Source of the DNA: Escherichia coli
GTDB lineage: Bacteria; Pseudomonadota; Gammaproteobacteria; Enterobacterales; Enterobacteriaceae
NCBI RefSeq assembly: GCF_024502345.1
Contig: NZ_JALDNN010000001.1
Length of the DNA: 64,000 nt
Reading direction: 5' to 3' (one strand)
The translations under genes and the position numbers were made by a program. Shown piece after piece: positions 494-63,521 of the stretch; position 1 is the first letter of the stretch, and each line of letters begins with the position of its first letter. The notes under the pieces were generated by a model. The model did no database searches, was not told where the DNA came from, and saw only the letters and a list, made by a program, of their open reading frames with translations.

Positions 494-1660
494 TCACACT
501 GATGGACGCAAACGAACGCGTAACCAGCTGTATCCAATTACCGCCGAAGAGATAGAACCGACCAGGATACCGAGTTTCGCCCAGTTAATCAGTTCTGGAT
601 CTACGCTACCAAAGGCCAGGCTGGCAATAAAGATAGACATAGTAAAACCGATACCGCACAGGATCCCCACCGCCATAATTTGCTGATAAGTCGTTCCCTC
701 TGGCAGATGCGCCAGTTTCAAACGCAGCGCCAACCAGCAGAACAGACTAATCCCCAGCGGTTTGCCAATCAGCAAGCCAGCGATGATCCCCAATGGCAGA
801 ATGGAGGTCAAGCCATCCAGCGTGACGCCTTGCAGTGAAACGCCAGCATTAGCAAATGCAAACAGCGGCAAAATCAGATACGCCACCCACGGGTGTAACA
901 CATGCTCCAGTCGCTTCGCTGGAGAACGCCCATGCTTCTCTTTCAAAGGAATAAAGAAGCCGACAATTACCCCCGCCAGGGTTGCGTGAACCCCCGATTT
1001 CAACACCGCAGTCCACAACACTACGCCAACCAGAATATAGACGCCCGTGCGGCGTACACCACACAGATTCAATACCGCGAGTACCGCAATTGCTACAGCC
1101 GCGACGCCAAGAGAGGCCATCGATAAGTCATTAGTGTAGAACAATGCGATGATAATGATGGCCCCAAGATCGTCGATAATAGCCAGAGCCATCAAAAAGA
1201 TCTTCAGTGCTAACGGAACACGACTTCCCAACAGCGCCAGCACACCAAGTGCAAAGGCAATGTCAGTAGCCGCCGGGATCGCCCACCCTTCGCGGGTAAT
1301 CGGATCGGCATAGTTAAAGGCCAGATAGAGTAATGCCGGAACAATCATCCCACCAATAGCGGCGATAACCGGAAATGCGGCCTGGCGTAAGCTGGCTAGC
1401 GATCCTTGCATCAGTTCACGTTTAACTTCCAGACCGACTAACAGGAAAAATACCGCCATCAGCGCGTCATTTATCCATAACAGCATGTTTTTGTTGATTT
1501 CGAGTGAACCAACCCGGAGCTGAACCGGCGTCTCCAGAAAGTCGTGATACCATCCACTGGTTGCGCCGCTGTTGGCCATCATCATCGCCAGGATAGCGGC
1601 AATGATAAGAATAATGCCTCCCGAGGCATCACTGCTAAAGAATCGATGCAGATGTTTCAC
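494..1660 (-). CDS. nhaA: Na+/H+ antiporter NhaA
   Basis: 388-aa ORF, GTG start, translation matches recalled NhaA. Confidence 0.95.
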
Positions 1661-2142
1661 TTTTTATTTCTCTTTCAGGTGAATAGATCGTTTTTACTAT
1701 TTTACCCCGCACGAATCATCGTTAAAATCAGATTATAGTGTAGGAATAACTCGTTTTTTACGAGCAATTAAAGGATTTGCGCCATCAGCGGTGAGATGAG
1801 TTTTTGACGGCTGTAAGCGCTAACGGGTGACCCTAAGCCCTGATAATCATAGCTTAAGGTCAGGATTTCTGAGGGATTAATTAGGAAAAGTAATAATTAA
1901 TTTCTTGTCAGTCGGCGTTATTTGTTAGGACAATATTTCAAAAATAATCCAGCTTGTCGTCAATAATTGCGATAAAGAGATAAATTAAAGTTAAATAATT
2001 AAATCATTAAAAAATTACGCCACAAAAATGCGAGGCGTCTTCAGGATTAGAATCGATAAAACAGAATGGGTTAAAGAGAGCGATATAATAGCGGCGGGTG
2101 CTTGAGGCTATCTGTCTCAGGCATTAGCTGAACGGCAGATAG

Positions 2143-2197
2143 AGAAAAGCCCCGAGTGATATTTTACTATCAACCCGAGGCCCCCTATATGCTGAAC
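2143..2197 (-). ncRNA. sokC: Putative Sok-type antisense RNA overlapping the mokC start (approximate position)
   Basis: Placed by hok/sok family architecture and recalled K-12 layout; not verified by structure. Confidence 0.4.
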
Positions 2198-2398
2198 ACA
2201 TGTAGAGTGCCTCTTACTGACCGTAAGGTCAAGGAGAAGAGAGCAATGAAGCAGCATAAGGCGATGATTGTCGCCCTGATCGTCATCTGTATCACCGCCG
2301 TAGTGGCGGCGCTGGTAACGAGAAAAGACCTCTGTGAGGTTCACATCCGAACTGGCCAGACGGAGGTTGCTGTTTTCACGGCTTACGAATCCGAGTAA
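2189..2398 (+). CDS. mokC: MokC, in-frame upstream extension of hokC
   Basis: ATG at 2189 in frame with hokC; MLNTCRVPLTDRKVKEKRA-MKQHK... Confidence 0.7.
   Translation: MLNTCRVPLTDRKVKEKRAMKQHKAMIVALIVICITAVVAALVTRKDLCEVHIRTGQTEVAVFTAYESE
2246..2398 (+). CDS. hokC: Type I toxin HokC (Hok/Gef family small membrane peptide)
   Basis: 50-aa MKQHKAMIVALIVICITAVVAALVTRKDLCEVHIRTGQTEVAVFTAYESE. Confidence 0.9.
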   Translation: MKQHKAMIVALIVICITAVVAALVTRKDLCEVHIRTGQTEVAVFTAYESE

Positions 2399-2420
2399 GT
2401 GCAACGGCGGGGAGTGATCC

Positions 2421-3759
2421 CATAAGCGCTAACTTAAGGGTTGTGGTATTACGCCTGATATGATTTAACGTGCCGATGAATTACTCTCACGATAACTGGT
2501 CAGCAATTCTGGCCCATATTGGTAAGCCCGAAGAACTGGATACTTCGGCACGTAATGCCGGGGCTCTAACCCGCCGCCGCGAAATTCGTGATGCTGCAAC
2601 TCTGCTACGTCTGGGGCTGGCTTACGGCCCCGGGGGGATGTCATTACGTGAAGTCACTGCATGGGCTCAGCTCCATGACGTTGCAACATTATCTGACGTG
2701 GCTCTCCTGAAGCGGCTGCGGAATGCCGCCGACTGGTTTGGCATACTTGCCGCACAAACACTTGCTGTGCGCGCCGCAGTTACGGGTTGTACAAGCGGAA
2801 AGAGATTGCGTCTTGTCGATGGAACAGCAATCAGTGCGCCCGGGGGCGGCAGCGCTGAATGGCGACTACATATGGGATATGATCCTCATACCTGTCAGTT
2901 CACTGATTTTGAGCTAACCGACAGCAGAGACGCTGAACGGCTGGACCGATTTGCGCAAACGGCAGACGAGATACGCATTGCTGACCGGGGATTCGGTTCG
3001 CGTCCCGAATGTATCCGCTCACTTGCTTTTGGAGAAGCTGATTATATCGTCCGGGTTCACTGGCGAGGATTGCGCTGGTTAACTGCAGAAGGAATGCGCT
3101 TTGACATGATGGGTTTTCTGCGCGGGCTGGATTGCGGTAAGAACGGTGAAACCACTGTAATGATAGGCAATTCAGGTAATAAAAAAGCCGGAGCTCCCTT
3201 TCCGGCACGTCTCATTGCCGTATCACTTCCTCCCGAAAAAGCATTAATCAGTAAAACCCGACTGCTCAGCGAGAATCGTCGAAAAGGACGAGTAGTTCAG
3301 GCGGAAACGCTGGAAGCAGCGGGCCATGTGCTATTGCTAACATCATTACCGGAAGATGAATATTCAGCAGAGCAAGTGGCTGATTGTTACCGTCTGCGAT
3401 GGCAAATTGAACTGGCTTTTAAGCGGCTCAAAAGTTTGCTGCACCTGGATGCTTTGCGTGCAAAGGAACCTGAACTCGCGAAAGCGTGGATATTTGCTAA
3501 TCTACTCGCCGCATTTTTAATTGACGACATAATCCAGCCATCGCTGGATTTCCCCCCCAGAAGTGCCGGATCCGAAAAGAAGAACTAACTCGTTGTGGAG
3601 AATAACAAAAATGGTCATCTGGAGCTTACAGGTGGCCATTCGTGGGACAGTATCCCTGACAGCCTACAAAACGCAATTGAAGAACGCGAGGCATCGTCTT
3701 AACGAGGCACCGAGGCGTCGCATTCTTCAGATGGTTCAACCCTTAAGTTAGCGCTTATG
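2421..3759 (+). mobile_element. IS186 insertion sequence
   Basis: Perfect 23-bp terminal inverted repeats cataagcgctaacttaagggttg at 2421-2443 and 3737-3759; flanked by 10-bp direct repeat ggagtgatcc at 2411-2420 and 3760-3769. Confidence 0.9.
2470..3588 (+). CDS. insL: IS186 transposase InsL
   Basis: 372-aa ORF inside the IS186 inverted repeats. Confidence 0.9.
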   Translation: MPMNYSHDNWSAILAHIGKPEELDTSARNAGALTRRREIRDAATLLRLGLAYGPGGMSLREVTAWAQLHDVATLSDVALLKRLRNAADWFGILAAQTLAVRAAVTGCTSGKRLRLVDGTAISAPGGGSAEWRLHMGYDPHTCQFTDFELTDSRDAERLDRFAQTADEIRIADRGFGSRPECIRSLAFGEADYIVRVHWRGLRWLTAEGMRFDMMGFLRGLDCGKNGETTVMIGNSGNKKAGAPFPARLIAVSLPPEKALISKTRLLSENRRKGRVVQAETLEAAGHVLLLTSLPEDEYSAEQVADCYRLRWQIELAFKRLKSLLHLDALRAKEPELAKAWIFANLLAAFLIDDIIQPSLDFPPRSAGSEKKN

Positions 3760-3850
3760 GGAGTGATCCCCGCCACTTTTCAGGTGCTCGCATATCTTCA
3801 ACGCACCCTAATTTTACCCAAGCCTGCCCACGGGCAGGCTTTTGGGGAGG

Positions 3851-4981: not shown

Positions 4982-5069
4982 CTTTTTTAAATTGCCCCTA
5001 GATGAATGCACGGGCGGAGAGGAAATTCCCCTTCGCCCGTGTCAGTATAATTACCCGTTTATAGGGCGA

Positions 5070-6986
5070 TTATTTTTTGTCTTTGACTTCTTCAAATTCA
5101 GCGTCGACAACATCGTCATCTTTCGCGTTGTTTGCAGAAGCATCAGCACCGGCAGTCTGCTGCTGGGCATGTTGCTGCTGGGCGATTTCCATCAGTTTCT
5201 GGGAAACCTGTGCCAGCTCCTGCATTTTCGCTTCGATAGCGGCTTTGTCTTCACCTTTCAGAGCAGTTTCCAGTGCAGTCAGTGCAGACTCGATAGCAGT
5301 TTTGTCGTCAGCCGGCAGTTTGTCGCCTGCTTCTTCAACCTGCTTACGGGTGCTGTGCAGCAGATGGTCGCCCTGGTTGCGAGTCTGTACCAGCTCTTCA
5401 AACTTACGGTCAGCTTCGGCGTTAGCTTCTGCGTCGCGTACCATTTTCTGGATTTCATCTTCGTTCAGACCAGAAGAAGCCTTGATGGTGATCTTCTGCT
5501 CTTTACCGCTGTTTTTATCTTTCGCGGAAACGTGCAGGATACCGTCAGCATCGATATCGAAGGTAACTTCGATCTGCGGCATGCCGCGCGGTGCCGGGTT
5601 GATACCATCCAGGTTGAACTGACCCAGAGATTTGTTATCAGCCGCACGTTTACGTTCACCCTGCAGCACATGGATGGTTACCGCAGACTGGTTGTCTTCA
5701 GCGGTAGAGAACACCTGGCTGTGCTTGGTCGGGATAGTGGTGTTTTTCGCGATCAGCGTCGTCATCACACCGCCCATGGTTTCGATACCCAGAGACAGCG
5801 GGGTAACGTCCAGCAGCAGTACGTCTTTCACGTCACCAGTCAGAACACCCCCCTGAACAGCAGCACCGATTGCTACAGCTTCGTCCGGGTTAACGTCTTT
5901 ACGCGGCTCTTTACCAAAGAACTCAGCAACTTTCTTCTGAACCATTGGCATACGAGTCTGACCACCAACGAGGATAACGTCGTCGATATCAGATACGGAC
6001 AGGCCAGCGTCCTGCAGTGCAACTTTCAGCGGCTCAATGGAACGGTTTACCAGATCTTCAACCAGGCTTTCCAGTTTCGCACGAGTCACTTTGATGTTCA
6101 TGTGTTTCGGACCGGTCGCATCTGCAGTGATGTACGGCAGGTTAACGTCGGTCTGCTGAGCGGAAGACAGTTCGATTTTCGCTTTTTCTGCCGCTTCTTT
6201 CAGGCGCTGCATTGCCAGCGGATCGTTGCGCAGGTCAATGCCCTGATCTTTCTTGAATTCTTCAACCAGGTAGTTGATCAGACGGCTGTCGAAGTCTTCA
6301 CCACCCAGGTGGGTATCACCGTTGGTAGCCAGAACTTCGAAGGTTTTTTCGCCGTCAACTTCGTCGATTTCGATAATAGAAATATCGAAAGTACCACCAC
6401 CCAGGTCATAAACCGCGATAGTACGGTTGCCAGTACCTTTGTCCAGACCGTAAGCCAGCGCAGCTGCGGTCGGTTCGTTGATGATACGTTTTACTTCCAG
6501 ACCAGCGATACGGCCTGCGTCTTTGGTTGCCTGACGCTGAGCATCGTTAAAGTATGCCGGTACGGTGATAACAGCTTCAGTTACCGGTTCACCCAAGTAA
6601 TCTTCAGCGGTTTTCTTCATTTTTTTCAGCACTTCAGCAGAGATCTGCGGCGGTGCCATTTTCTGGCCTTTAACTTCGACCCATGCGTCGCCGTTATCAG
6701 CAGCAATAATTTTGAACGGCATGATGGAAACATCACGCTGTACTTCTTCGTCCTGGAAGCGGCGGCCAATCAGGCGTTTAATCGCAAACAGGGTGTTTTG
6801 CGGGTTCGTCACTGCCTGACGTTTAGCCGGCTGACCAACCAAAGTTTCACCATCCTGGGTATAGGCAATGATAGAAGGCGTGGTGCGATCGCCTTCGGCG
6901 TTCTCCAGCACACGAGGAGTGGTGCCATCCATAATCGCTACACAAGAGTTGGTAGTACCCAGGTCGATACCAATTATTTTACCCAT
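5070..6986 (-). CDS. dnaK: Chaperone DnaK (Hsp70)
   Basis: 638-aa [21 protein letters not shown]... Confidence 0.97.
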
Positions 6987-16349: not shown

Positions 16350-18812
16350 TCAGACTCCTAACTTCCATGAGAGGGTACGTAGCAGATCGGCAAAGACACC
16401 GGCAGCGGTAACGTCATTGCCCGCACCATATCCGCGCAGCACCAACGGCAGCGGCTGATAATAGTGGCTATAGAAGGCCAGGGCGTTTTCGCCATTTTTC
16501 ACTTTGAACAGCGGATCATTACCATCCACTTCGGCAATCTTCACGCGGCAGACGCCATCTTCATCAATATTGCCAACATAGCGCAAAACTTTTCCTTCAT
16601 CACGGGCCTTCGCCACGCGCGCGGCAAAGAGATCGTCGAGCTGTGACAGATTCGCCATAAAAGCGGCAACATCACCCTCGGCGTTAAACTCTGCGGGCAG
16701 CACAGGTTCAATTTCAATATCCGCCAGCTCCAGTTCACGTCCCGTTTCACGAGCGAGAATTAATAGTTTACGCGCTACATCCATACCAGAAAGATCATCT
16801 CGCGGATCCGGTTCGGTATAACCCATTTCCCGCGCCAGCGTAGTCGCCTCGGAGAAACTCATGCCTTCGTCTAACTTGCCGAAGATATAAGAAAGCGAAC
16901 CTGAAAGAATGCCGGAGAACTTCATCAATTCATCACCAGCATTGAGCAGATTTTGCAGGTTCTCAATAACCGGTAATCCAGCCCCAACGTTGGTGTCATA
17001 GAGGAATTTACGCCGCGATTTTTCCGCCGCATGACGCAACAGATGGTAGTAATCCATCGACGAGGTGTTGGCCTTTTTGTTCGGCGTGACAACGTGGAAA
17101 CCTTCGCGCAAGAAGTCGGCATATTGATCCGCCACTGCCTGGCTGGAGGTGCAGTCAACAATGACCGGGTTTAGCAGATGATATTCTTTCACGAGGCGAA
17201 TTAAGCGCCCGAGATTAAACGGCTCTTTGGCTTGCGCCAGTTCTTCCTGCCAGTTTTCCAGATTTAGGCCATGCACATTGGTGAGCAGAGCCTTCGAGTT
17301 AGCAACACCGCAGACACGTAAGTCGATATGTTTATTCTTCAACCAGCTTTGCTGACGCTTCAGTTGCTCCAGCAGCGCACCGCCAACGCCACCGACGCCA
17401 ATCACAAACACTTCGATAACCTGATCGGTATTGAACAGCATCTGATGAGTAACGCGCACGCCAGTGGTCGCATCATCGTTATTTACCACGACAGAGATTG
17501 AGCGTTCAGAAGATCCCTGAGCAATAGCGACAATGTTGATATTGGCGCGGGCCAGCGCGGCAAAGAATTTCGCCGAGATCCCACGCAAGGTACGCATACC
17601 ATCACCTACCACCGAGATAATGGCCAGCCGTTCCGTCACCGCCAGCGGCTCCAGTAAGCCTTCTTTCAGTTCCAGGTAGAACTCTTCCTGCATTGCCCGT
17701 TCAGCTCGCACACAGTCGCTTTGTGGAACGCAGAAACTGATACTGTATTCGGAAGATGATTGCGTAATCAGCACCACGGAAATACGGGCGCGTGACATCG
17801 CTGCAAAGACGCGCGCCGCCATGCCGACCATTCCTTTCATCCCCGGGCCGGAAACGCTGAACATTGCCATGTTATTCAGATTGGAAATGCCCTTGACCGG
17901 TAATTCGTCTTCATCACGACTGGCACCAATGAGCGTACCTGGTGCTTGAGGATTTCCGGTATTTTTAATCAGGCAAGGGATCTGGAACTGGGCGATGGGG
18001 GTAATGGTACGGGGGTGAAGAACTTTAGCGCCGAAGTAAGAAAGCTCCATCGCTTCCTGGTAGGACATCGATTTCAACAACCTCGCATCGGGCACCTGAC
18101 GCGGGTCGCAGGTATATACCCCGTCAACGTCCGTCCAAATCTCGCAACAATCGGCGCGTAAACAGGCAGCCAGCACCGCCGCGGAGTAGTCGGAACCGTT
18201 GCGTCCAAGTACCACCAGTTCGCCTTTTTCATTACCGGCGGTGAAACCTGCCATCAGCACCATGTGATCAGCCGGAATACGACTTGCCGCAATACGGCGG
18301 GTGGACTCAGCAATATCGACGGTAGATTCGAGGTAATGCCCCACTGCCAGCAGTTTTTCGACCGGATCGATAACGGTAACGTTGTGACCACGCGCTTCTA
18401 ACACGCCGGCCATAATGGCGATTGACATTTTCTCGCCACGGCAAATCAGCGCAGCGTTAATGCTATCCGGGCACTGCCCTAACAAACTAATGCCATGCAG
18501 GACATGTTTTATTTGAGCAAATTCCTGGTCGACGAAAGTTTTCAATTGCGCCAGCGGGAATCCCGGCTGGGCGGCGGCGAGTCCCGTCAGAAGTTCGGCA
18601 AAAATACGTTCGGCATCGCTGATATTGGGTAAAGCATCCTGGCCGCTAATGGTTTTTTCAATCATCGCCACCAGGTGGTTGGTGATTTTGGCGGGGGCAG
18701 AGAGGACGGTGGCCACCTGCCCCTGCCTGGCATTGCTTTCCAGAATATCGGCAACCCGCAGAAAACGTTCTGCATTTGCCACTGATGTACCGCCGAACTT
18801 CAACACTCGCAT
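16350..18812 (-). CDS. thrA: Bifunctional aspartokinase I / homoserine dehydrogenase I
   Basis: 820-aa product from the internal [17 protein letters not shown] start; the track ORF is a 14-codon upstream extension. Confidence 0.97.
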
Positions 18813-18840
18813 GGTTGTTACCTCGTTACCTTTGGTCGAA

Positions 18841-18875
18841 AAAAAAGCCCGCACTGTCAGGTGCGGGCTTTTTTC
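18841..18875 (-). terminator. thr operon attenuator terminator
   Basis: Minus-strand agcccgcacctgacagtgcgggct hairpin plus T run, between thrL and thrA. Confidence 0.9.
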
Positions 18876-18892
18876 TGTGTTTCCTGTACGCG

Positions 18893-18961
<69 letters not shown>

Positions 18962-31951: not shown

Positions 31952-32105
31952 AAATGCCGGATGCGGCGTGAACGCCTTATCCGGCCTACAAACCAAGAAA
32001 TTTCAATACGTTGTGAATCTCCAGGCCTGATAAGACGCGGTAAGCGTCGCATCAGGCATTGAGCACCGAATGCCGGATACGGCGTGAACGCCTTTTCCGG
32101 CCACA
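31952..32105. repeat. REP/BIME palindromic repeat units
   Basis: tgccggatgcggcgtgaacgccttatccggcctaca and related units. Confidence 0.8.
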
Positions 32106-45100: not shown

Positions 45101-45285
45101 TGCCGGATACGGCCTACGGTTCGGCACAAACCTGTAGGCATGATAAGACGCGTCAAGCGTCGCATCAGGCATTGTGCGCCAACTGCCGGATGCGGCGTGA
45201 ACGCCTTATCCGGCCTACGGTTCGGCACAAACCTGTAGGCATGATAAGACGCGACAAGCGTCGCATCAGGCATTATGCGCCGACT
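45101..45285. repeat. Tandem duplication of a REP/BIME unit (period about 101 bp)
   Basis: cctacggttcggcacaaacctgtaggcatgataagacgcg[t/a]caagcgtcgcatcaggcatt[g/a]tgcgcc occurs at about 45113 and 45214. Confidence 0.85.
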
Positions 45286-51847: not shown

Positions 51848-52438
51848 ATGTCTCGAATTTTTGCTTACTGTCGGATATCAACGCTGGATCAGACCCCCGA
51901 AAATCAACGCCGGGAAATCGAAAGTGCAGGTTTTAAAATCAAACCTCAGCAAATAATCGAAGAACACATTAGCGGCTCAGCAGCAACCAGTGAGCGTCCT
52001 GGTTTTAACCGGTTGCTTGCTCGCCTGAAATGTGGTGATCAATTGATTGTGACAAAACTGGATCGCCTTGGTTGTAATGCAATGGATATCAGGAAAACAG
52101 TGGAACAACTGACCGAAACAGGTATCAGAGTGCATTGCTTAGCATTGGGGGGCATTGACCTGACCAGTCCAACAGGAAAAATGATGATGCAAGTAATTTC
52201 AGCAGTCGCTGAATTTGAACGAGACCTTTTACTTGAACGCACTCATTCCGGGATAGTAAGAGCCCGGGGCGCAGGGAAACGTTTTGGTCGACCACCTGTG
52301 TTAAATGAAGAACAGAAACAGGTGGTATTCGAACGAATTAAGTCAGGTGTAAGTATAAGTGCCATTGCCCGGGAATTCAAAACCTCGCGGCAAACCATTT
52401 TAAGAGCCAAAGCAAAACTTCAGACACCTGACATATAA
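51848..52438 (+). CDS. pin: Serine recombinase, Pin-like DNA invertase (PinQ/PinR type)
   Basis: 196-aa [15 protein letters not shown]...; resolvase/invertase catalytic N-domain plus C-terminal HTH. Confidence 0.85.
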
Positions 52439-52535
52439 AAAATAATCTCGGTGTGAGATGCTTTACGTCTTCCAAGCCCCCTTCCTTGCCGTAAATGGAA
52501 AGATACATCTAATTATAGAATTTATATGTTTTACC

Positions 52536-53111
52536 CTACGGCAGTGCTGGCCATTCAATATCCTGTGCAGTTGACGTATCAACACGGTTCAGCAATACCC
52601 GATACTTTTTCCATGCTTCCAGCAACGAGATTTCTTCCTCCGTTGCAATTTCCAGATCTGCAGCATCCTGAAGCGGCGCAATATGCTCACTGGCTACCTG
52701 CATCAGGTTGTTTTTTGTTTCTTCCGCCTCCCGGATCCGGAACAGTTTTTCTGCTTCCGTATCCTTCACCCAGGCTGTGCCGTTCCACTTCTGAAACTCC
52801 CCTTCCGGGGATAACCAAGTGACATTTTCCGGTAATGGGCCAAGTTCAGAAATAAATAACGCGTCGCCGGAAGCCACGTCATAGACGGTTTTACCCCGAT
52901 GGTCTTCAACGAGATGCCACGATGCCTCATCACTGTTGAAAACAGCCACAAAGCCAGCCGGAATATCTGGCGGTGCAATATCGGTACTGTTTGCTGGCAG
53001 ACCTGTATGAGGTGGAATATATGCATCACCTTCACCAATAAATTCATTAGTTCCGGCCAGCAGATTATAAATTGTTATGGTCCGTGGTTGTTCACTCATT
53101 CTGAAATCCAT
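52536..53111 (-). CDS. tfa: Tail fibre assembly protein Tfa
   Basis: 191-aa from the ATG preceded by an AGGTG SD; ...[37 protein letters not shown]... as recalled for TfaQ/TfaR. Confidence 0.85.
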
Positions 53112-53119
53112 GTTCACCT

Positions 53120-54022
53120 CTACTTAATATCAGAGACAGAATATTGTTTATTGAACGTATGGGTGTGAGCACCAATAACGATGCTACTTCCGTGGCTATG
53201 TGCGCCAGAGATGACATTACCTACGGGATTTTCTGGATTAATCCGGTGTATATGCGAACCAGGGCGAAACCGGTTATTAGCCTGATGTTGTATCAGTACA
53301 TCATCAGCCTGATGTTCAGGGTTAATACAGACCTGCCCGGAACGTGAGCAATACGTCCGATAATCGCCGCATCCAATATATTTAGTATCCGCATAACGGC
53401 AAACAGAATTACCCGGACAGTATGCATATGTGCCAAATACTGCCGACTGGCGGGATTGTGCGTATTCCCAGTTAATTGATTCTGTTTTTTTATTAAAGTT
53501 ATCCCATGCCTGCTTCATCTGCCGGGCAACACTTTCAAACGGCACCTGACCACATCCGGCTCCCATTGCAGGGAATACCACCGTTTTTATTTTCCTGTCT
53601 GTCGTTGCGTGTTTATTGTGCTGAAAGATGGCAAGCAGAGCGGCCCAGGTTGCGTTATATACAGCGTCTGTTCCGTCAATTGTCAGCGGAACACGCATTG
53701 TTGGCGCATGTACCAGCCAGGGATGATGATTATGCCCCGTTTCAATAACAAATGCAGAACCTACAGGCTGCTCGCCGAGATATTCACGAAGAATATGATT
53801 CTGAACGCGGGACTGTAACTGAGTACCGAAGAATGCGGTAATGGCGGCATCAACACCGCCATCCATCAGGCCGAAACTGTTTGCCGCACTTACCATGCAG
53901 TCAAATTCCCTGATTGTTTCAAATGGCTTTCCGACAATATTCACATTATCTGCATTTGCGAATACCCGCTTAAATGCTTCAGCCATTTCTGTTACTGGTG
54001 CAGAAAGAATGAGCGTAATCAT
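53120..54022 (-). CDS. Macrodomain protein with tail-fibre-like His-x-His C-terminal region
   Basis: Macrodomain motifs [42 protein letters not shown]; C-terminal ...[18 protein letters not shown]; ATG overlaps the stop of the upstream stf fragment. Confidence 0.6.
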
Positions 54023-54186
54023 GCAAGCCTCACAATATAGTTAAATGCGATGTTTTTGACGGTGTTTTCCGCGTTACCAGCAGCGTTAACGGTGATGGTG
54101 TGTCCATGTGACCCTATCGCAACGGAGTGCGTATGAGCACCAATACCGACAGTATGCGCGTGTGCACCTGCAGATACTGCTGTAAA
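54019..54186 (-). pseudogene. Side tail fibre (Stf) C-terminal fragment
   Basis: ...[51 protein letters not shown]; joined out of frame to the terminase fragment upstream. Confidence 0.7.
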
Positions 54187-54892
54187 AACGCATGAAATGT
54201 GCCGACTCGTTAGCGGCTTTTTCGATCTGGCAGGAGCCTTTGATTTTAGGCGTCGAGCCGCGAATGGATTTTGGCCATACAGAGCCCTCAATACGTTTAT
54301 CCCCCAGCAGGGTTGGCGAACCCTCTTTTTCAACATCCGGTTCGAACGAGGAAAGTTCGTCATAGCAGACCACATCCACGGATTTTTCACGGTAGTTTTT
54401 GGCGGCAGCGCCGCCCAGGCACCATAAACCGACGCCCGATGAAAAGCGTTTCAGCGTGAGGGTATTATCACGATGTTTACGACCCAGCCATGGGGAAAGG
54501 TCTTTCAGGCATGGCACGTCCCTAATCGTCGTCTCCACGTGAGACTTCATAAAATCTTCAGCGGCAGAATCCGTGGGCTGAAAAAGCAGACTGTTTCGGG
54601 ATTTATGCTCAATAAAATACCCGACCACCCCCAGCAACATCTTTGTATAGCCAACACGGGCAGATTTAATCAGATTAACTGTGCGGATCTGATCATTCCC
54701 CATACTGTTCATGATGGCGATCTGGAACGGCAGCGTTTTCCATTCGCCGTCACCGTATGAGGATTCTTTCGGCAGATAATAATACTGATCAGCCCATTCA
54801 ACTGCCGTCATCGGTACAACCCTGACCAGAGGCTGCAGCGCAACCGAAACGGCAGCCATCAGATTATTCAGTTGTTGCTCTGATATATTCAT
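54185..54892 (-). pseudogene. Terminase large subunit (lambda gpA-like) N-terminal fragment, about 235 codons
   Basis: MNISEQQLNNL...PMTAVEWADQYYYLPKESSYGDGEWKTLPFQ...[41 protein letters not shown] closely parallels lambda gpA 1-215, then similarity stops. Confidence 0.85.
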
Positions 54893-55370
54893 CCAGCAAA
54901 TCCGGTAATTTATCCCCTGCCCGCGCACACTGATTTGCGCCCTTCGCAATAAGGGTTTTCAGATGGTCAAGATGACGTGGCGTTAAATCCGGGAACTGTC
55001 GCTGCATGGATAACGGAATAGAATCAAGCGTACTGGACAATGCCATCGCCAGCTTGCTGAGGGCGAAAACGCAGAAGTCTGAATCGATGAGCTTACCTTC
55101 GGTTACCTGATTTTTAAGTTTTTGAGCTACGGCCTGTTCTTCTGTCAGTTCAGCTCTGGCCCGAAGCAGCCTTTCCTCCAGATCGCCCCCGTCATCAGGT
55201 GTTCTATGATTGTGTTGTCGCCGCTCGCGATCTATCTCCAGTACAGTTTTAACGTCATAAAAAACTTCCCTCCCCCGACGCTCGACAGGAGGAACGCCCC
55301 ATTTATCAAATGCCTGAACAGAGATACCGATGGAGGAGGCCATATCACTTTTATTCAATAAAAAGGCCAT
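54864..55370 (-). CDS. noh: Terminase small subunit, Nu1-like (Noh)
   Basis: MAFLLNKSDMASSIGISVQAFDKWGV... resembles lambda Nu1; GGAGAGGAG SD; 3' end overlaps the terminase-A fragment start. Confidence 0.8.
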   Translation of the reverse strand: MAFLLNKSDMASSIGISVQAFDKWGVPPVERRGREVFYDVKTVLEIDRERRQHNHRTPDDGGDLEERLLRARAELTEEQAVAQKLKNQVTEGKLIDSDFCVFALSKLAMALSSTLDSIPLSMQRQFPDLTPRHLDHLKTLIAKGANQCARAGDKLPDLLDEYIRATTE

Positions 55371-55797
55371 CTCCTCTCCATAAGTCATCGATAAAAAGCG
55401 ATACAACAACCATGTGTTTTTACAAAACCATTTGATATCATTTAATTTTTTCACATTAATGACATCAAAGCACATCGTAAGGTTGTTGTATTTATTTTAT
55501 TTTCACCTTACTTATCAATTAGATATACCAAACAATTAAACAACAACCACCCCCTCAAAAAATCTCATAAATAGCGAAAAACCGCGAGGTCGCCGCCCCG
55601 TAACCTGTCGGATCGCCGGAAAGGACCCACAAAATGATAATAATTATCATCTACATATCACAACGTGCGTGTACGCCATCAAACCACGTCAAATAATCAA
55701 TTATGACGCAGGTATCGTATTAATTGATCCGCATCAACTTAACGTAAAAACAACTTCAGACAATACAAATCAGCGACACAGAATACGGGACAACCTC

Positions 55798-55989
55798 ATG
55801 TCAACGAAGAACAGAACCCGCAGAACAACAACCCGCAACATCCGCTTTCCTAACCAAATGATTGAACAAATTAACATCGCTCTTGATCAAAAAGGGTCCG
55901 GGAATTTCTCAGCCTGGGTCATTGAAGCCTGCCGTCGGAGACTAACGTCAGAAAAGAGAGCATCTACATCAATCAAAAGTGATGAATAA
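55798..55989 (+). CDS. YlcI/YnfO-family small prophage protein (DUF3950)
   Basis: 63-aa MSTKNRTRRTTTRNIRFPNQMIEQINIALDQKGSGNFSAWVIEACRRRLTSEKRASTSIKSDE. Confidence 0.7.
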   Translation: MSTKNRTRRTTTRNIRFPNQMIEQINIALDQKGSGNFSAWVIEACRRRLTSEKRASTSIKSDE

Positions 55990-56242
55990 TGAATATCCCG
56001 GTTTCTTTACCTCCCCTCCCACCCCGCACAGGACTGGCGAACGTGTGGGACAAATATGTGAGTCATAAACGCCTTATCTTCAGAAATGCAGTTGGCATCC
56101 GAACAGGACGATATTGTAACTTCACCTAATTACGAGGCATTGCAGTAGTTGAATTGTAGTTCTGTATTAGCCTGACAGTGACAGAATGCGATATTGACTC
56201 TGTCACAGGTGAAATAGTTTGAATGGTTAGCAGTTATGGCGA

Positions 56243-56449
56243 TCAGTCAACCACCAGGGAATAATCCTTCGAATTCTTATCGTGCTTCACCAACGCTGCC
56301 TCAATTGCCCTGAATGCTTCCAGAGACACTTGATGTTCTATACATGCAATTACAACATCCGGATAACTCATAGAAATGGTGCTAGTGAGCATAGTTTTTA
56401 CACGGACCTGATCCAAGGATGAGTCATCAGTGTATTGATCTTTATGCAT
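56243..56449 (-). CDS. Hypothetical 68-aa protein (possibly a truncated YdfO-like gene)
   Basis: ORF only; identity uncertain. Confidence 0.35.
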
Positions 56450-56744
56450 TTTGTCGCTCCATGCGTTTGCTCTTCACTTGCGGCTAAAAATATAACGTCA
56501 AATCACTCAGCATGAAAGTGTGAAAGTTTCAGCGCGTTTCCCTTACATAATCTGTCGTTTGTATTCTCTCCAGGCATACCGGAAAGACTAGGTATTGTCA
56601 CACAACCAATACCACCGACTATCGAGATTTATATCTATTCGGTAATGTTTAAATATAAAAAAACCCCGTAAAAACGAGGTTTATGGGTAAATTGTATTGT
56701 TGAATAGCATCTGATAAGAAATTGATGCTAATACTATAAACACA

Positions 56745-56918
56745 CTAGATTAAATCAATCTTGATATCATAGCTTTCAAGACCAGTCATTTTTTCCCGTG
56801 CAGTAAACTGGATACTGGTAACTTCTTTCCCGGTCTTTTTCTTAAGCTCAATAATTTTTTTTGTTATATATTCAGAAATATCTGCTTCTGTTTTTGTTTT
56901 TAACTCTTCAATGTTCAT
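56745..56918 (-). CDS. gnsB: GnsA/GnsB-family protein
   Basis: 57-aa MNIEELKTKTEADISEYITKKIIELKKKTGKEVTSIQFTAREKMTGLESYDIKIDLI. Confidence 0.85.
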   Translation of the reverse strand: MNIEELKTKTEADISEYITKKIIELKKKTGKEVTSIQFTAREKMTGLESYDIKIDLI

Positions 56919-57090
56919 CATTTCCTCTTTTAGTCTGTTATGACTTTCCTGGTACACAGTAGTGTCAATTATATGGAGCAAACGTATAAAAGATAAGATG
57001 AAACATCGCAATAATCAACATACGACAGTCTAAATTTCGCACAAACAGATAAAGATGATTATCCTTTATTATCAAGGCATTAGAATGAAA

Positions 57091-57321
57091 TCAATTCAAG
57101 AGTCTCATTGCTGCTTCCAGAATTTCTTCTGAAGTTACATGTCGATCCGCTGCTACATAAATGACTTTATGATCTCCGGTCAGAGATGGAAACCCTGCAG
57201 CCATTACAGTGAGATGTGTTGTTTCGCCATTTGGATATTCACGCATGATGGTGTTAACTCCGGTCATCACTGGCACTACCATTGCTGGTTCAGAGTTAAA
57301 AAAAACTATTATTTTTTTCAT
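57091..57321 (-). CDS. Hypothetical 76-aa protein
   Basis: MKKIIVFFNSEPAMVVPVMTGVNTIMREYPNGETTHLTVMAAGFPSLTGDHKVIYVAADRHVTSEEILEAAMRLLN. Confidence 0.45.
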   Translation of the reverse strand: MKKIIVFFNSEPAMVVPVMTGVNTIMREYPNGETTHLTVMAAGFPSLTGDHKVIYVAADRHVTSEEILEAAMRLLN

Positions 57322-57363
57322 GATGTTACCGTAATATGTGAGTATCCATCGACTAGACACTAA

Positions 57364-57386
57364 GCAAAAAAGCTCCCGAAGGAGCC
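57364..57386 (-). terminator. Rho-independent terminator (minus strand)
   Basis: gctcccgaaggagc hairpin followed by TTTTTT on the minus strand. Confidence 0.6.
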
Positions 57387-57592
57387 TTCATTTTCACTTT
57401 CTTAAATCTAACGACAGACGGCTAACATTTAAGTATTGTGAAATATTATCAAATGTAATCATCATTGATTTACAAAAGATACATTTTGCCCCGAAAGGAT
57501 TCCTGTCAGAAACATCAAAAGATGATGTTCTATACTGAGAACCATGGCAACACGGGCATCTAAAGTGAATATGGTTTGTAATATTTTCTACC

Positions 57593-57805
57593 TCAAAGTG
57601 CCACTACATGAACAGCCGCGGGGCCTTTAGGTCCGTTCTCAATACCAAATTCGACTTGCTGATTCTCAGTTAACGTTTTGAAATCGTTGCTCTGAATAGC
57701 TGAGAAATGGACAAACACATCTTTGCTACCATCTTTCGGCGTGATGAAACCAAAACCTTTTTCAGGGTTAAACCATTTCACTAAACCAGTCATTTTGTTA
57801 GACAT
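57593..57805 (-). CDS. cspI: Cold shock protein, CspI-like
   Basis: 70-aa [70 protein letters not shown]. Confidence 0.92.
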
Positions 57806-58174
57806 CATTATTACCTTTTGAAGAAGTGAGCCCTTGGGCAGAATGGTCCGAAAAAAAATATCAGAGAGAAAAACCAACAAGGAAATCTCAAGAGGTACAA
57901 ATAATAAAATTATAACAATGACTGCTTCAGATAATTTTGTAACAAACCAGAACACCATTAACGCATGATTAACCAACCATAGCAAGGATTACTTTTGTAA
58001 AGAAAAACACACGAATGAAACAATAGCTTTATTTATTAATAAAACGTGTCATTCTGTCTAATGACCTTTTATCTTACCCTTAAGATTTCAAGGATTTTGA
58101 CTCATGGAAGAGTCCTTTTTATTTAAATTTCACATTCAGCGCTAAAAATAATCCGATTTAATGTTAATCTACAT

Positions 58175-59196
<1,022 letters not shown>

Positions 59197-59301
59197 GGAT
59201 ATTTATCAGGATTTATCGGTTTCTGAACCCTGGATATGTTTATCTGTCCCGGCCTGTTGAATCAGGCGGGGAAAAGGTAAAGACAATCAAGAGGATTATT
59301 T

Positions 59302-59574
59302 ATGGACAATAACACCATTTCTCTACAGGAGTTGCTCGACTGCATTTCAAAGCTTCGGGATGATGTAAATGCCCTCACTGTTGCATTTTCATATTTGGCC
59401 TTATCAATTCCCAGAGAACAAATGCAACCAACACTGGCATCGCTCCTGCTTGAATCACGCAACCCCAAATGGTCCCAGGAACAACAAAATTCTTTCAAGT
59501 GGCTGGCGGCATTACTGGAAGAAAAATATGCTGGTAAAATTACCATTTCGGTGGAGTCTTCAGAGAATCAGTAA
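59302..59574 (+). CDS. Hypothetical 90-aa protein on the opposite strand within the lysis cassette
   Basis: AGGA 7 nt upstream of the ATG; MDNNTISLQELLDCISKLRDDVNALTVAFSYLALSIPREQMQPTLASLLLE... Confidence 0.35.
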   Translation: MDNNTISLQELLDCISKLRDDVNALTVAFSYLALSIPREQMQPTLASLLLESRNPKWSQEQQNSFKWLAALLEEKYAGKITISVESSENQ

Positions 59575-59884
59575 TTCTTCCTGGTAGCTTTCCTTTGTAG
59601 GTTATCCACACATTCTGCGCCTCTAAAATTACGGGGCGCTTTTCCGGCGACTGCTCATCCCCTTCACATAACCCGGCTGCAACTTCCAGGAAGACCTGTC
59701 TGATGCTCCTTCTGGCTGCTGCCTCATAAAACTCCAGCGCGGCACCTTCAACACGGTCCAGCGAGATGTCCAGGTCAAAAATTTCACCGTCAAAGCGTTT
59801 TTTGTCCCTTAATGCTACAGTTACCGCAACTTTATTCTCAAAATTGCGGATCCCTTTCACAATCAGTTCATAGTTTTGTGTCAT
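59540..59884 (-). CDS. YdfR-like prophage protein (DUF1327)
   Basis: MTQNYELIVKGIRNFENKVAVTVALRDKKRFDGEIFDLDISLDRVEGAALEFYEAAARRS... Confidence 0.65.
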   Translation of the reverse strand: MTQNYELIVKGIRNFENKVAVTVALRDKKRFDGEIFDLDISLDRVEGAALEFYEAAARRSIRQVFLEVAAGLCEGDEQSPEKRPVILEAQNVWITYKGKLPGRITDSLKTPPKW

Positions 59885-59888
59885 TGAA

Positions 59889-60104
59889 TTACTCTCCCCG
59901 TGCAACCTTACGCTTGTCTTCTTTAATCTTGAAATAAAGGTTTGTCAGGTACGTCAGCAAGCCAAATACCAGACTACCCAGCACACCGATTGCAGCCCAC
60001 TGTGACGGAGTTACTTTATCGAGTAACTGCAATGCCCAGAAACCAGCATTACCAGCCGATGTGCCATAGGCGATACCTGTTGTTAACTTATCCATTGATT
60101 TCAT
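59889..60104 (-). CDS. Phage holin (EssQ/EssD type)
   Basis: 71-aa [71 protein letters not shown]. Confidence 0.88.
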
Positions 60105-60322
60105 ATCCTCACCCCGATGTACACAGATGGTGCAATATGTTTGAAAAGATCGGAGTCTATGGGGTAGTTTTTATAGCAAACGTTGTTCTCAACGGCGCTA
60201 AAAAACAGACACATTAAAAATGTGGGTAATTATTTTAAAAGAAAATCATATATTAAATAATAATACGAGATATGTTTTCATATTTAGTGTACTGTATACG
60301 GCCATTTATACAGGAAAAGCCT

Positions 60323-60493
60323 ATGTCAGAACGTAAAGACTCAAAATCACGCCGTAATTATCTCGTTAAATGTTCCTGCCCAAACTGCACCCAAGAGTCA
60401 GAACACAGTTTTTCAAGAGTACAAAAAGGTGCCCTTTTGATCTGCCCTCATTGCAACAAAGTATTCCAGACAAATCTTAAAGCTGTAGCTTGA
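60323..60493 (+). CDS. Small zinc-ribbon protein (56 aa)
   Basis: MSERKDSKSRRNYLVKCSCPNCTQESEHSFSRVQKGALLICPHCNKVFQTNLKAVA; CxCPNC...CPHC; AGGAAAAG RBS. Confidence 0.55.
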   Translation: MSERKDSKSRRNYLVKCSCPNCTQESEHSFSRVQKGALLICPHCNKVFQTNLKAVA

Positions 60494-60552
60494 TTGATTT
60501 TATTCGTAACAAGTATTTTTTATATTTTAATAACATATTTAAAGCAGATAAT

Positions 60553-60576
60553 AAAAAACCCGCCTGAGCGGGTTTA
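60553..60576. terminator. Bidirectional rho-independent terminator
   Basis: aaaaaacccgcctgagcgggttt. Confidence 0.7.
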
Positions 60577-60856
60577 ATATTGTGGTACTTTTTGTGGGAG
60601 TCATCCACTTACGCACTTTGTTTTGCTATGCCAGCAGTTAGCTTCTGCTGTAAAACTATTCATGCAGCAAACCTGCACTTCACCACAATGGTTAGCATAC
60701 TTTTCCTGATTAAGTTATTGCCAAATATGCTGGCCATTGTTTCATGTATTGGACCTCCTTACTCTTTATTAAAGAGATCCAATATTCACCACTCTGTCTG
60801 TATCTCCACTCAGGCATCAGCCTTCTTCGTTATCGTATACAGACAAACTATGAATT

Positions 60857-61072
60857 TTAATCAGTAATTATGACATTTGCTGCTGCAGGACCTTTAGCAC
60901 CACTCTCTACAGAGAAGGTAACCTTTTGACCTTCAAATAAGATTCGATAATTATCATTCTGAATCGCAGAAAAATGCACAAACACATCTTTACTACCATC
61001 AACAGGAGAAATAAAGCCAAAACCTTTATCAGCGTTAAACCATTTTACTAAACCAGTCATTTTATTTGACAT
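60857..61072 (-). CDS. cspB: Cold shock protein, CspB-like
   Basis: 71-aa [71 protein letters not shown]. Confidence 0.92.
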
Positions 61073-61372
61073 TCTACATTCCTTAACTTGAGCCTTTCGG
61101 CATAAATGGCTTGTATAACAGAAACGACTTCGTACTTAATTGGAGAGACTCAAAGAAGGAATAAGTGAATAACACCTGAAATGAGAACTGCTTTAGTAAA
61201 CTACTTCGTATATCGTCTGTTCTTCAAACCGACGCAATCATTAACGCATAGTTGAACATATGAAGCAATGTTTATTTTAGACATCCAGCCATCTTCAACC
61301 CCATCAAAAAACTATAGCTTTCTTCAGGAACGTGTGTATAGTGCGCCAAGTTATCAGTATTAAGGAATTTTT

Positions 61373-61585
61373 TTGTCCCGTAAAATGACAGGAATTCTCA
61401 AAACCTTTGACGGCAAAAGCGGCAAAGGTCTTATAACCCCATCCGATGGTCGTATCGATGTCCAGCTTCATGTTTCAGCGCTCAATCTCCGCGATGCAGA
61501 AGAAATTACCACCGGATTACGCGTGGAATTTTGCCGGATAAATGGTCTGCGTGGACCATCAGCTGCCAATGTTTACCTTTCATGA
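61373..61585 (+). CDS. cspF: Cold shock-like protein, CspF/CspH type
   Basis: 70-aa [70 protein letters not shown]. Confidence 0.88.
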
Positions 61586-61639
61586 GCTATATTAAAGCTT
61601 TAACTTCAAGCCCCATCGAATCAAACATGGAGAGTTTTC

Positions 61640-61729
61640 ATGAATAAACCCGTCTGTCTTGATGACTGGTTGATTGGCTTTAAAAGCTTATGCTGTACTT
61701 TGACCTTAATAGCTCTGCTAATAATGTAA
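61640..61729 (+). CDS. Hypothetical 29-aa hydrophobic peptide
   Basis: [29 protein letters not shown]; GGAGAG SD 6 nt upstream. Confidence 0.3.
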
Positions 61730-61876
61730 TAAGCAGACTCATTGTATCTATGGACATTGTACTGGAAGAAAACATTTTAAACATCAGGCAAAAAACAAAG
61801 TCACCCGATAAATAATAAGTAAACTAACATGAATCCCGTAATGAGATTCAACATCTCTATTACCCTATTTAAAGCA

Positions 61877-61912
61877 CAAAAACCCGCTCATCAGCGGGTT
61901 TTCTACTTTTTC
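61877..61912 (+). terminator. Rho-independent terminator
   Basis: aacccgctcatcagcgggtt hairpin followed by a T run. Confidence 0.7.
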
Positions 61913-62007
61913 TTAACTTCGGGTATACAAAGCCCATCGTTGAAAAAATTTTATCCATATTTTTTGAAAAATGCAAGCATCACGTCGCCATCTTCGGCGA
62001 AAATCAC

Positions 62008-62760
62008 TTATCTCGTCACCTTTCTCAATTGTGCTTCAGCGTAAGATTCCTCCTGCCAGCACTTTGTAACCAGTTTATCAATGACATTTGCATATCCTTT
62101 ATACCACTGATAATCACTCAGGTCCGGTACCAGCTTCTGGACATGATGCCGCGCCAGTGTGGTTGGTAAACGACTAAACCGTTTTCCATTGCAACGCCCA
62201 CAAATCTTATAAACAGGTGTGCCATGAAGCCGGGTCCTTTTTTCATCCAAGACAATACCTTTACCCTTACACCCTCTGCACGCTGTGCTGACTTCTCCCT
62301 TACCATGGCAATGCTGACATAGTTCCTTCACCCACTCTTCTTTGATAACAGATTCCCCGCTTCTGGAGTGTTTCACCACTTCGCGCAATACATTATGAAA
62401 TCCAGTACCAGCACAATGCTCACAACGAGCCTTACTTGCCGCAGACCTGGAATAATCAGCAAAGGCAAAATTCACAAGGTAAGGAATAATCTGTAGCCGG
62501 GTTTCTTCACTCAATTTATTCAATGTCGGGTTATCCAGTGCCATCGCGTAATTGAGCAGACCTTCAATCGCAAACTGAGGATCCTGAACACCAACTTTTG
62601 CCAGGAATAAGGCAAACCCAAGCGGTGCTTTCGACTGCACCATCCCCTGCGCAGCCATCACATCCGTAATCGTTAAACCACCAGAGCCTGTCGCCGGTGC
62701 GTCATCACTCAATTTTGGAGATTTTGGGGAGTAATATTTTGGTAAGGCTTCAAGGTTCAT
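62008..62760 (-). CDS. Late-gene antiterminator Q (QuuQ/YdfT type)
   Basis: 250-aa ORF with Cys-rich zinc-finger-like segment CEHCAGTG...CQHCHGKGE...CRGCKGKG...CGRCNGK. Confidence 0.8.
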   Translation of the reverse strand: MNLEALPKYYSPKSPKLSDDAPATGSGGLTITDVMAAQGMVQSKAPLGFALFLAKVGVQDPQFAIEGLLNYAMALDNPTLNKLSEETRLQIIPYLVNFAFADYSRSAASKARCEHCAGTGFHNVLREVVKHSRSGESVIKEEWVKELCQHCHGKGEVSTACRGCKGKGIVLDEKRTRLHGTPVYKICGRCNGKRFSRLPTTLARHHVQKLVPDLSDYQWYKGYANVIDKLVTKCWQEESYAEAQLRKVTR

Positions 62761-62820
62761 GCTCGTTCTCCACTTACGCCAGTACGCCTATTGCCAGCGC
62801 ACGATCGATAAAACGAAATA

Positions 62821-63171
62821 TCAGCTCCAGCTGGGAGCCATACTTCTCTTCAAATGCCACGGTAAACGCTGGTTAATATCGGCATTGTCCACATCCTCGA
62901 CGTCAGGAAGAGACACAAAGACGCCATTTGCAGACTGCGCCACAGCGTCAGCAATGAAGTGAGTGCCACCAGCACGTTGTAAAATCATTGCCCATCCCAG
63001 CGGGAAAATCTGATCGCCATCGGCACGAAGGCGGTTAAATAATGCGTTCTCTGTTACATCCAGCCACTCAGCAGCTTCAGCGTACCCCACCGGCAACGCC
63101 GCGATAGTTTTTCTGACAGCTTTCACGTACCACTCAGGCTGTTTTTCCACTTTCCAGTGATGATTACCCAC
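62821..63171 (-). CDS. Hypothetical early-region protein, possibly CII-like regulator
   Basis: 116-aa, GTG start, immediately downstream of cro; family not identified. Confidence 0.45.
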   Translation of the reverse strand: MGNHHWKVEKQPEWYVKAVRKTIAALPVGYAEAAEWLDVTENALFNRLRADGDQIFPLGWAMILQRAGGTHFIADAVAQSANGVFVSLPDVEDVDNADINQRLPWHLKRSMAPSWS

Positions 63172-63424
63172 GGCTTACCTCCTGTTCCTGTGGTTTAAAC
63201 CCATTCTGGTTTTGGCTAGATTGAAAACGTGCCGGATAAAGAATCTGCATTTCGCTGATTTCACCCTTAAAAAAATTGGCCAGACGTTCTGCAAGATCGA
63301 TAGATGGAATTTGTTCCAGTCTTTCAATACGACTCAGCGTCGCTGGATTGACCTGAACGCCAGCAGCAACATGCTGCAAAGTAAATCCGTGCGCCTTACG
63401 CACATTCCGTAATGGTGATTGCAT
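63164..63424 (-). CDS. Cro-like HTH (XRE family) regulator
   Basis: 86-aa MQSPLRNVRKAHGFTLQHVAAGVQVNPATLSRIERLEQIPSIDLAERLANFF...; divergent from cI. Confidence 0.75.
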   Translation of the reverse strand: MQSPLRNVRKAHGFTLQHVAAGVQVNPATLSRIERLEQIPSIDLAERLANFFKGEISEMQILYPARFQSSQNQNGFKPQEQEVSRG

Positions 63425-63438
63425 ATGACCTCCACATA

Positions 63439-63501
63439 TTGCGTGATGAGCATATTATTTCACGCAAATATTTTGCGCAAGTTGATTTGCTTAACGCGCA
63501 A
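63439..63501. promoter_or_regulatory. Two dyad-symmetric operator candidates between cro and cI
   Basis: TTGCGTGA-N13-TCACGCAA at 63439-63467 and TTGCGCAA-N13-TTGCGCAA-type dyad at 63473-63501. Confidence 0.6.
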
Positions 63502-63521
63502 TAAAGAAATGTAATAAACGC

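Follow-up and report, generated by a model that had tools for sequence, protein, structure and literature searches.

The stretch of DNA considered here (the window) comprises 64,000 nucleotides of contig NZ_JALDNN010000001.1 from the Escherichia coli assembly GCF_024502345.1 and represents a part of the E. coli chromosome presented in the reverse of the K-12 numbering. It harbors the hokC/sokC toxin–antitoxin locus, followed by a copy of the insertion sequence (IS) IS186 and situated between nhaA (494–1660, minus strand) on one side and dnaJ (from 3851, minus strand) and dnaK (5070–6986, minus strand) on the other. The IS resides in a GC-rich hairpin located immediately past the hokC stop codon and parts the toxin gene from the 3' end of its mRNA, including the fold-back inhibitory (fbi) element. 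The features of the locus are as follows:

2084–2089, plus strand: TATAAT, a consensus –10 hexamer of the putative hokC promoter, read from the sequence, 7 nt 5' of the presumed mRNA end
2097–2107, plus strand: tac element (GGUGCUUGAGG) at the 5' end of the hokC mRNA, paired in the minimum free energy (MFE) folds
2139–2197, minus strand: sokC antisense RNA gene, placed by gap-free alignment with the K-12 annotation (16952–17010), within the match to Rfam family RF01794
2189–2398, plus strand: mokC frame, 69 amino acids, overlapping hokC; its translation matches the K-12 mokC annotation
2246–2398, plus strand: intact hokC toxin gene, 50 amino acids by translation (MKQHKAMIV...AYESE), Pfam HOK_GEF, E = 4.6e-24
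2406–2420, plus strand: left half of the target hairpin (GGCGGGGA-GUGA-UCCCCGCC when uninterrupted), present in the predicted structure of the uninterrupted RNA
2411–2420 and 3760–3769, plus strand: left and right copies of the target duplication GGAGTGATCC, a direct repeat flanking the IS
2421–3759, plus strand: IS186/IS421 element, 1339 bp, left (transposase-proximal) end toward hokC, recognized by its near-identity to K-12 IS186A and its inverted repeats
2476–3588, plus strand: transposase gene (InsL-type, 370 amino acids), same direction as hokC, an uninterrupted open reading frame (ORF) corresponding to K-12 insL1
3796–3807, plus strand: fbi element CUUCAACGCACC, pairing with tac, invariant in the 16 sampled loci and now parted from the hokC body
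3820–3845, plus strand: stem-loop AAGCCTGCCC-AC-GGGCAGGCTT followed by TTTT, an inverted repeat in the sequence and the putative native terminator of the hokC mRNA

The toxin–antitoxin part of the locus displays the typical organization of hok/sok systems: a Hok/Gef toxin of ~50 amino acids, an overlapping mok frame and a cis-encoded antisense sok in the leader, which matches the Rfam hok/sok leader family RF01794 at 2096–2248 (122 bits). The HokC protein, whose gene ends with TAA at 2396–2398, is identical to that of K-12, and all the three allelic states considered below (forward, reverse and empty) include loci annotated with the same protein accession, WP_000809168.1. The contiguous mRNA with a 3' fbi pairing the 5' tac is, however, absent: 1349 bp intervene between the stop codon and fbi. 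The promoter/terminator scan called neither the promoter nor the terminator of hokC, and both are proposed here from the sequence and the fold; the stem-loop at 3820–3845 was missed by the scan because its T-run comprises only 4 nt. The TATAAT hexamer, retained in 15 of the 16 sampled loci (TCTAAT in 19SZHZ803Rt), places the 5' end of the hokC mRNA near 2096–2097.

Judging by its sequence, the IS copy is intact in its ORF and at both ends. It is bordered by perfect 23-bp terminal inverted repeats (CATAAGCGCTAACTTAAGGGTTG at 2421–2443 and its complement at 3737–3759) and carries a single DDE-type ORF matching Pfam DDE_Tnp_1 (E = 1.6e-26; 93.7 bits at a cut-off of 23), identical copies of which are labeled by PGAP as IS4-like IS421 family transposase. 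Together with the near-identity to known copies and a duplication of ~10 bp at a GC-rich target, these traits are those of IS186; IS186/IS421 is a cut-and-paste element of the IS4 family. The copy shares 1338 of 1339 nt with each of the MG1655 copies IS186A and IS186B, the sole difference being a synonymous one at 2769 (G in the window vs. A in K-12). This G is private to the window copy, since A is found in nine other sampled copies residing at the hokC site as well as in IS186A and IS186B of K-12. A 14-nt inverted repeat within the IS (2468–2481 and 2540–2553; ACGTGCCGATGAAT and ATACTTCGGCACGT) spans the region of the transposase start codon and could hide it in transcripts entering from outside, e.g., in those reading through from hokC.

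The IS is separated from the hokC stop codon by 22 nt (GTGCAACGGCGGGGAGTGATCC, 2399–2420). A repeat search revealed that the identical string flanking the element is actually 12 nt long (GGGAGTGATCCC, 2410–2421 and 3759–3770), since the outermost base of the IS coincides by chance with the flank at both ends; the length of the duplication is therefore 10, 11 or 12 bp depending on the reading, the net gain of 1349 bp being the sole fixed value. Upon in silico deletion of 2421–3769, the resulting 452-nt sequence turned out to be 100% identical to the uninterrupted loci of E. coli W, IAI1 and many other strains. Such a match with natural empty sites excludes chance, so the insertion at hokC is real. 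An earlier interpretation made without database searches (below, the sequence-only reading) had recognized the element as IS186, its start 22 nt past the stop codon and the flanking duplication GGAGTGATCC; all of these hold true, with the above-mentioned latitude in the length of the duplication. The position 2143, from which that reading let the feature begin, marks no feature boundary, the hokC transcript likely starting upstream of it.

The significance of the insertion point becomes apparent from the folding of the hokC mRNA. The fold-back control involving the tac and fbi elements was described for the hok/sok system of plasmid R1 by Thisted, Franch, Gultyaev and Gerdes, as summarized in PMC9841398. 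The locus in the window resembles the R1 system in its Hok/Gef toxin, overlapping mok, antisense sok, the predicted tac-fbi and tac-ucb alternatives and the GC hairpin after the stop codon; it differs from R1 in its chromosomal location, in the displacement of the 3' regulatory part by 1349 bp and in that post-segregational killing was reportedly absent even with an IS-free hokC (that of ECOR24, see below). When the reconstructed 403-nt uninterrupted RNA is folded, the MFE structure has tac (2097–2107) paired with fbi (3796–3807) and contains both the target hairpin and the terminator stem (3820–3841). In the RNA devoid of fbi, tac folds onto 2114–2125 (its ucb partner), giving the tac/ucb hairpin of the open form. 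The insertion moved tac and fbi 1349 nt further apart, and the IS offers no substitute: no complement of tac was found inside it on either strand with up to two mismatches allowed. The tac element lacked a 3' partner in all eight chimeric RNAs modeled to end inside the IS in both orientations, and the tac/ucb hairpin formed in five of the eight. Hence, the pairing of tac with fbi in the rebuilt mRNA, consistent with PMC3562002 and PMC9841398, bears out the claim of the sequence-only reading that the insertion cuts hokC off from its fold-back 3' end.

The most likely course of events is as follows. IS186 has transposed into the GGGG-AGTGAT-CCCC hairpin past the hokC stop codon, duplicating GGAGTGATCC and parting the promoter, tac, sokC and the mokC/hokC frames from the 3' fbi and the terminator. 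Transcripts started at the hokC promoter would then continue into the IS, sense to the transposase gene, and would be devoid of fbi unless the whole IS is read through. Such fbi-less transcripts would fold straight to the open tac/ucb form, not to the closed, stable and silent full-length form, so the regulated reservoir of toxin mRNA needed by hok/sok systems would be lost with the toxin and antitoxin genes remaining intact. We infer these transcriptional and physiological consequences for hokC; the closed full-length hokC mRNA should be lost, as was proposed for gef of K-12 in PMC3562002.

Insertion of this kind is already known: IS186A in gef/hokC of K-12 was reported decades ago by Poulsen et al. 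1989 and Pedersen & Gerdes 1999 (as cited in PMC3562002), and a hokE::IS186 allele exists as well. The window shares with the K-12 hokC::IS186A the locus, the insertion point 22 nt past the stop codon, the duplication GGAGTGATCC and the separation of fbi. At the same time, the IS in K-12 MG1655 is inverted relative to the window; the alignment of the two covers the flanks and the terminal repeats but not the IS interior. The insL1 gene of K-12 lies antisense to hokC, in the direction of dnaJ, whereas the transposase gene of the window has the same direction as hokC; of the two, only the window has the left IS end facing the hokC transcripts, which run into it sense to the transposase gene. The flanks are diverged by 1.1% as well: over 6.1 kb of IS-free flanking sequence, the window displays 69 differences (1.13%) from K-12 and 7 from strain HS. 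On the antisense strand of the IS (3187–3206, minus strand) there is a terminator-like hairpin, GCCGGAAAGGGAGCTCCGGC followed by TTTTTTATTA, which would meet hokC transcripts ~570 nt into the IS in the K-12 orientation but not in that of the window; therefore, the ends of the hokC transcripts should differ by orientation.

The distribution of the allelic states was assessed in 5426 complete E. coli genomes from RefSeq by junction-specific searches with the unique dnaJ-side flank. The window orientation was recorded in 923 genomes, the K-12 orientation in 681 and the uninterrupted hokC site in 3816, so that 5420 of the 5426 genomes were assigned to one of the three states. Counts based on the whole-region BLAST coverage (939 + 817 + 3816) were discarded since their sum exceeds the number of genomes, a consequence of including the paralogous hok::IS186 loci. 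HS, C and O111:H8 are among the carriers of the window orientation; laboratory strains of K-12 and B, along with some natural isolates, have the K-12 orientation. Thus, ~30% of the complete E. coli genomes possess hokC split by IS186 in one of two orientations, which should yield different chimeric hokC transcripts, a circumstance relevant to the users of hokC/gef alleles.

These figures bear on two ways of accounting for the arrangement in the window. The sequence-only reading considered it to be the same as in K-12 and placed the strain in or near the K-12 lineage; inheritance from a common ancestor would indeed explain the shared site and duplication and an IS differing by 1 nt. Yet the inverted position of the element already refutes it, the flanks are 69/6100 nt off K-12 and only 7/6100 nt off HS, and the same arrangement is harbored by 923 genomes belonging to at least phylogroup A and B1-type strains. 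Furthermore, a Qin-like prophage remnant is inserted beside prfC in the window; Qin itself resides elsewhere in K-12, and nothing is known to be inserted at the K-12 prfC. Inheritance of the arrangement in common with K-12 is therefore very improbable, and neither the identity of the arrangements nor the placement in the lineage survived the comparison: the insertion in the window says nothing about K-12 ancestry. In general, an IS residing at a hot spot is of little use for tracing lineages, since the same site and duplication recur independently; in this case, the orientation alone revealed it.

The orientation itself might also be questioned, IS copies being classic assembly problems and the terminal inverted repeats being perfect here, so that a repeat could have been placed the wrong way round. 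Such an artefact is hardly credible given that 923 complete genomes, including the HS and C references, show this very orientation, and that the private synonymous single-nucleotide polymorphism (SNP) at 2769 argues against a collapsed consensus copy.

The relationships between the states were traced in the 16 sampled loci. All of the IS-bearing loci in the sample (10/10) share the position, the length and the duplication of the insertion. Two SNPs, 2400 T/A and 3780 T/A, each 21 nt from the IS, define three immediate-flank haplotypes, and each of the three was encountered in the forward, reverse and empty states. The neighbor-joining tree of the 6.1-kb flanks interleaves the three states in the same manner, and strain AR_0069, bearing the IS in the window orientation, is only 9 SNPs away from K-12, with the opposite orientation, over these 6.1 kb. 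The positions 2400 and 3780 were also considered as a co-varying base pair, but this was rejected: the haplotypes T/T, A/T and A/A lend it no support.

Recurrence at exactly the same position is understandable in view of the target. The uninterrupted site is a perfect hairpin, GGCGGGGA-GTGA-TCCCCGCC, with the core GGGG-AGTGAT-CCCC (GGGG-N6-CCCC), and the duplication GGAGTGATCC sits inside GGGGAGTGATCCCC. A consensus target for IS186 consisting of at least four G, three to six arbitrary nucleotides and at least four C is said to have been reported by SaiSree et al. in 2001; in this work, the motif was derived empirically from the three IS186 copies of K-12 and the sequence of the lon-promoter hot spot. 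In the 64-kb window devoid of the IS, exactly one such site (G≥4 N3-6 C≥4) is present, the occupied one.

The other two IS186 copies of K-12 follow the same rule and display the same cut geometry. IS186B resides in a homologous hairpin (GCGGGGAGTAATCCCCGC) past hokE, is flanked by a 10-bp duplication, GGAGTAATCC, and has its transposase gene in the same direction as the hok gene, like the window; it differs from the latter in the hok paralogue, in the chromosomal site and in the distance from the stop codon (21 vs. 22 nt). IS186C is located in GGGG-ATAATT-CCCC just 3' of nupC, with the duplication GGATAATTCC; the nupC site combines a GC hairpin with a subsequent T-run and has the appearance of the nupC terminator.

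The lon-promoter region contains GGGGG-AAACAT-CCCC (GGGGGAAACATCCCC), to which the coordinate given in Table 1 of PMC3861542 (+88 from clpX) maps by our own arithmetic. According to published work, IS186 enters this site de novo in either orientation (PMC3045373) and can be excised from it precisely (PMC3861542). The lon insertions thus resemble that at hokC in the target (at least four G, N6 and at least four C), in the use of a single site and in the occurrence of either orientation, as well as in the precise excision. Unlike the hokC insertion, which splits the 3' region of an mRNA, they destroy a promoter and were selected in the laboratory.

A different history, with one or two ancient insertions, inversion of the element in place via its terminal repeats and spread of the alleles by homologous recombination, accommodates a part of these observations. 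The palindromic target extends the IS ends to a 38-nt, 89% complementary inverted repeat (2406–2443 and 3737–3774), the position and the duplication are identical in both orientations, close relatives carry opposite orientations (the above-mentioned AR_0069 and K-12), and the IS copies are near-identical everywhere. However, 23 to 38 bp barely reach, or fall short of, the length that efficient RecA recombination usually requires, which counts against inversion in place. The three flank haplotypes are shared by the empty sites, which are interleaved with the occupied ones on the tree, so repeated insertion or precise excision is needed anyway, and the de novo hits in either orientation at the single lon site already explain the pattern. 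As for the spread by recombination, an imported inverted copy would carry its donor flanks along, but the SNPs lying 21 nt from the IS on either side still belong to the recipient haplotype. Taken together, we regard such a history as possible but unlikely. The changes between the states of hokC we infer to have occurred by independent insertion; recurrent insertion into a hot spot, perhaps accompanied by excision, appears to be the simplest reading.

Overall, we assign a probability of roughly 0.85 to the reading that IS186 in the GC-rich hairpin past the stop codon parts hokC from its fbi, and that this hot spot has been hit repeatedly, in both orientations and in several lineages, giving no sign of K-12 ancestry. 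What is added here to the known insertions is limited to the inverted orientation of the copy relative to K-12 and to the widespread and interleaved occurrence of the three states, which fits the known hot-spot mechanism of IS186.

Several points weigh against this reading, both in its functional and in its evolutionary part. The scan predicted no strong intrinsic terminator on the plus strand inside the IS; therefore, a read-through RNA is possible in the window orientation. In the MFE fold of such a 1752-nt RNA extending to the native terminator, tac pairs with fbi again, so read-through might restore the pairing, and the fbi control may not be fully lost here. The gef gene of K-12 with its IS186 is still transcribed and still controlled by the antisense RNA, as reported in PMC3562002, and, as described in a preprint, the IS-free hokC of ECOR24 mediated no post-segregational killing; hence, the functional loss due to the IS may be small. 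As to the evolutionary part, the complete genomes in RefSeq over-represent laboratory derivatives of K-12 and B, the 16-locus sample used for the haplotypes and the tree is small, and the sequence alone fits both independent insertions and inversion in place. The further claim of the sequence-only reading, that the insertion disables the toxin system, accordingly divides: impairment is plausible, but disabling is an overstatement with hokC, mokC, sokC, tac and fbi all intact, gef reportedly transcribed in K-12 and killing reportedly absent in ECOR24.

A bolder extension of recurrent hot-spot insertion would be that the post-stop hairpin of hokC and of its paralogues such as hokE serves as a landing pad for IS186, cycling between the empty, forward and reverse states via insertion and precise excision. 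We consider this rather doubtful. If true, such cycling would constitute a reversible IS switch between the fbi-controlled and the fbi-less hokC mRNA; in the forward state, the hokC promoter would also feed sense transcription into the transposase gene.

Two observations on other loci of the sample deserve mention. In the IS-bearing locus of the O111:H8 strain 7-54 11A, G is replaced by A in tac (GGTACTTGAGG) at the equivalent of the window position 2100; it is the sole change in tac or fbi among the 16 loci and would break a G-C pair between the two elements. This substitution may be a sign of a constraint relaxed after the insertion. In the divergent strains MS8345 and A25, both with an empty hokC site, ~3.6 kb of extra genes are located between nhaA and hokC; they encode an OmpK-like protein, a sulfatase and a hypothetical or IS1-type product and are without counterpart in the window and in K-12.

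The remaining part of the window spans the start point of the K-12 numbering and continues into the arcA-cre-deo-prfC region. The Qin-like remnant beside prfC (51848–64000) is that of a defective lambdoid prophage with genes for a Pin-type DNA invertase, tail-fibre assembly, the small terminase, Rz, an endolysin and the antiterminator Q; its truncated large terminase gene directly adjoins the tail genes. The Rfam family IS009 matches at 52570–52768, inside the tail-fibre assembly gene. For the 44–64 kb segment, no complete E. coli genome in the collection searched covers all 20 kb at high identity, the best one attaining 81% coverage at 97.5%. The remnant also carries two csp genes with cspA-type 5' untranslated regions (Rfam RF01766, 57566–57963 and 60794–61233). 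The other Rfam matches are those expected for a K-12-like backbone (4982–5059, 18838–18957, 32024–32102 and 45137–45215), namely tpke11 upstream of dnaK, the thr operon leader and two naRNA4 (REP-type) elements.

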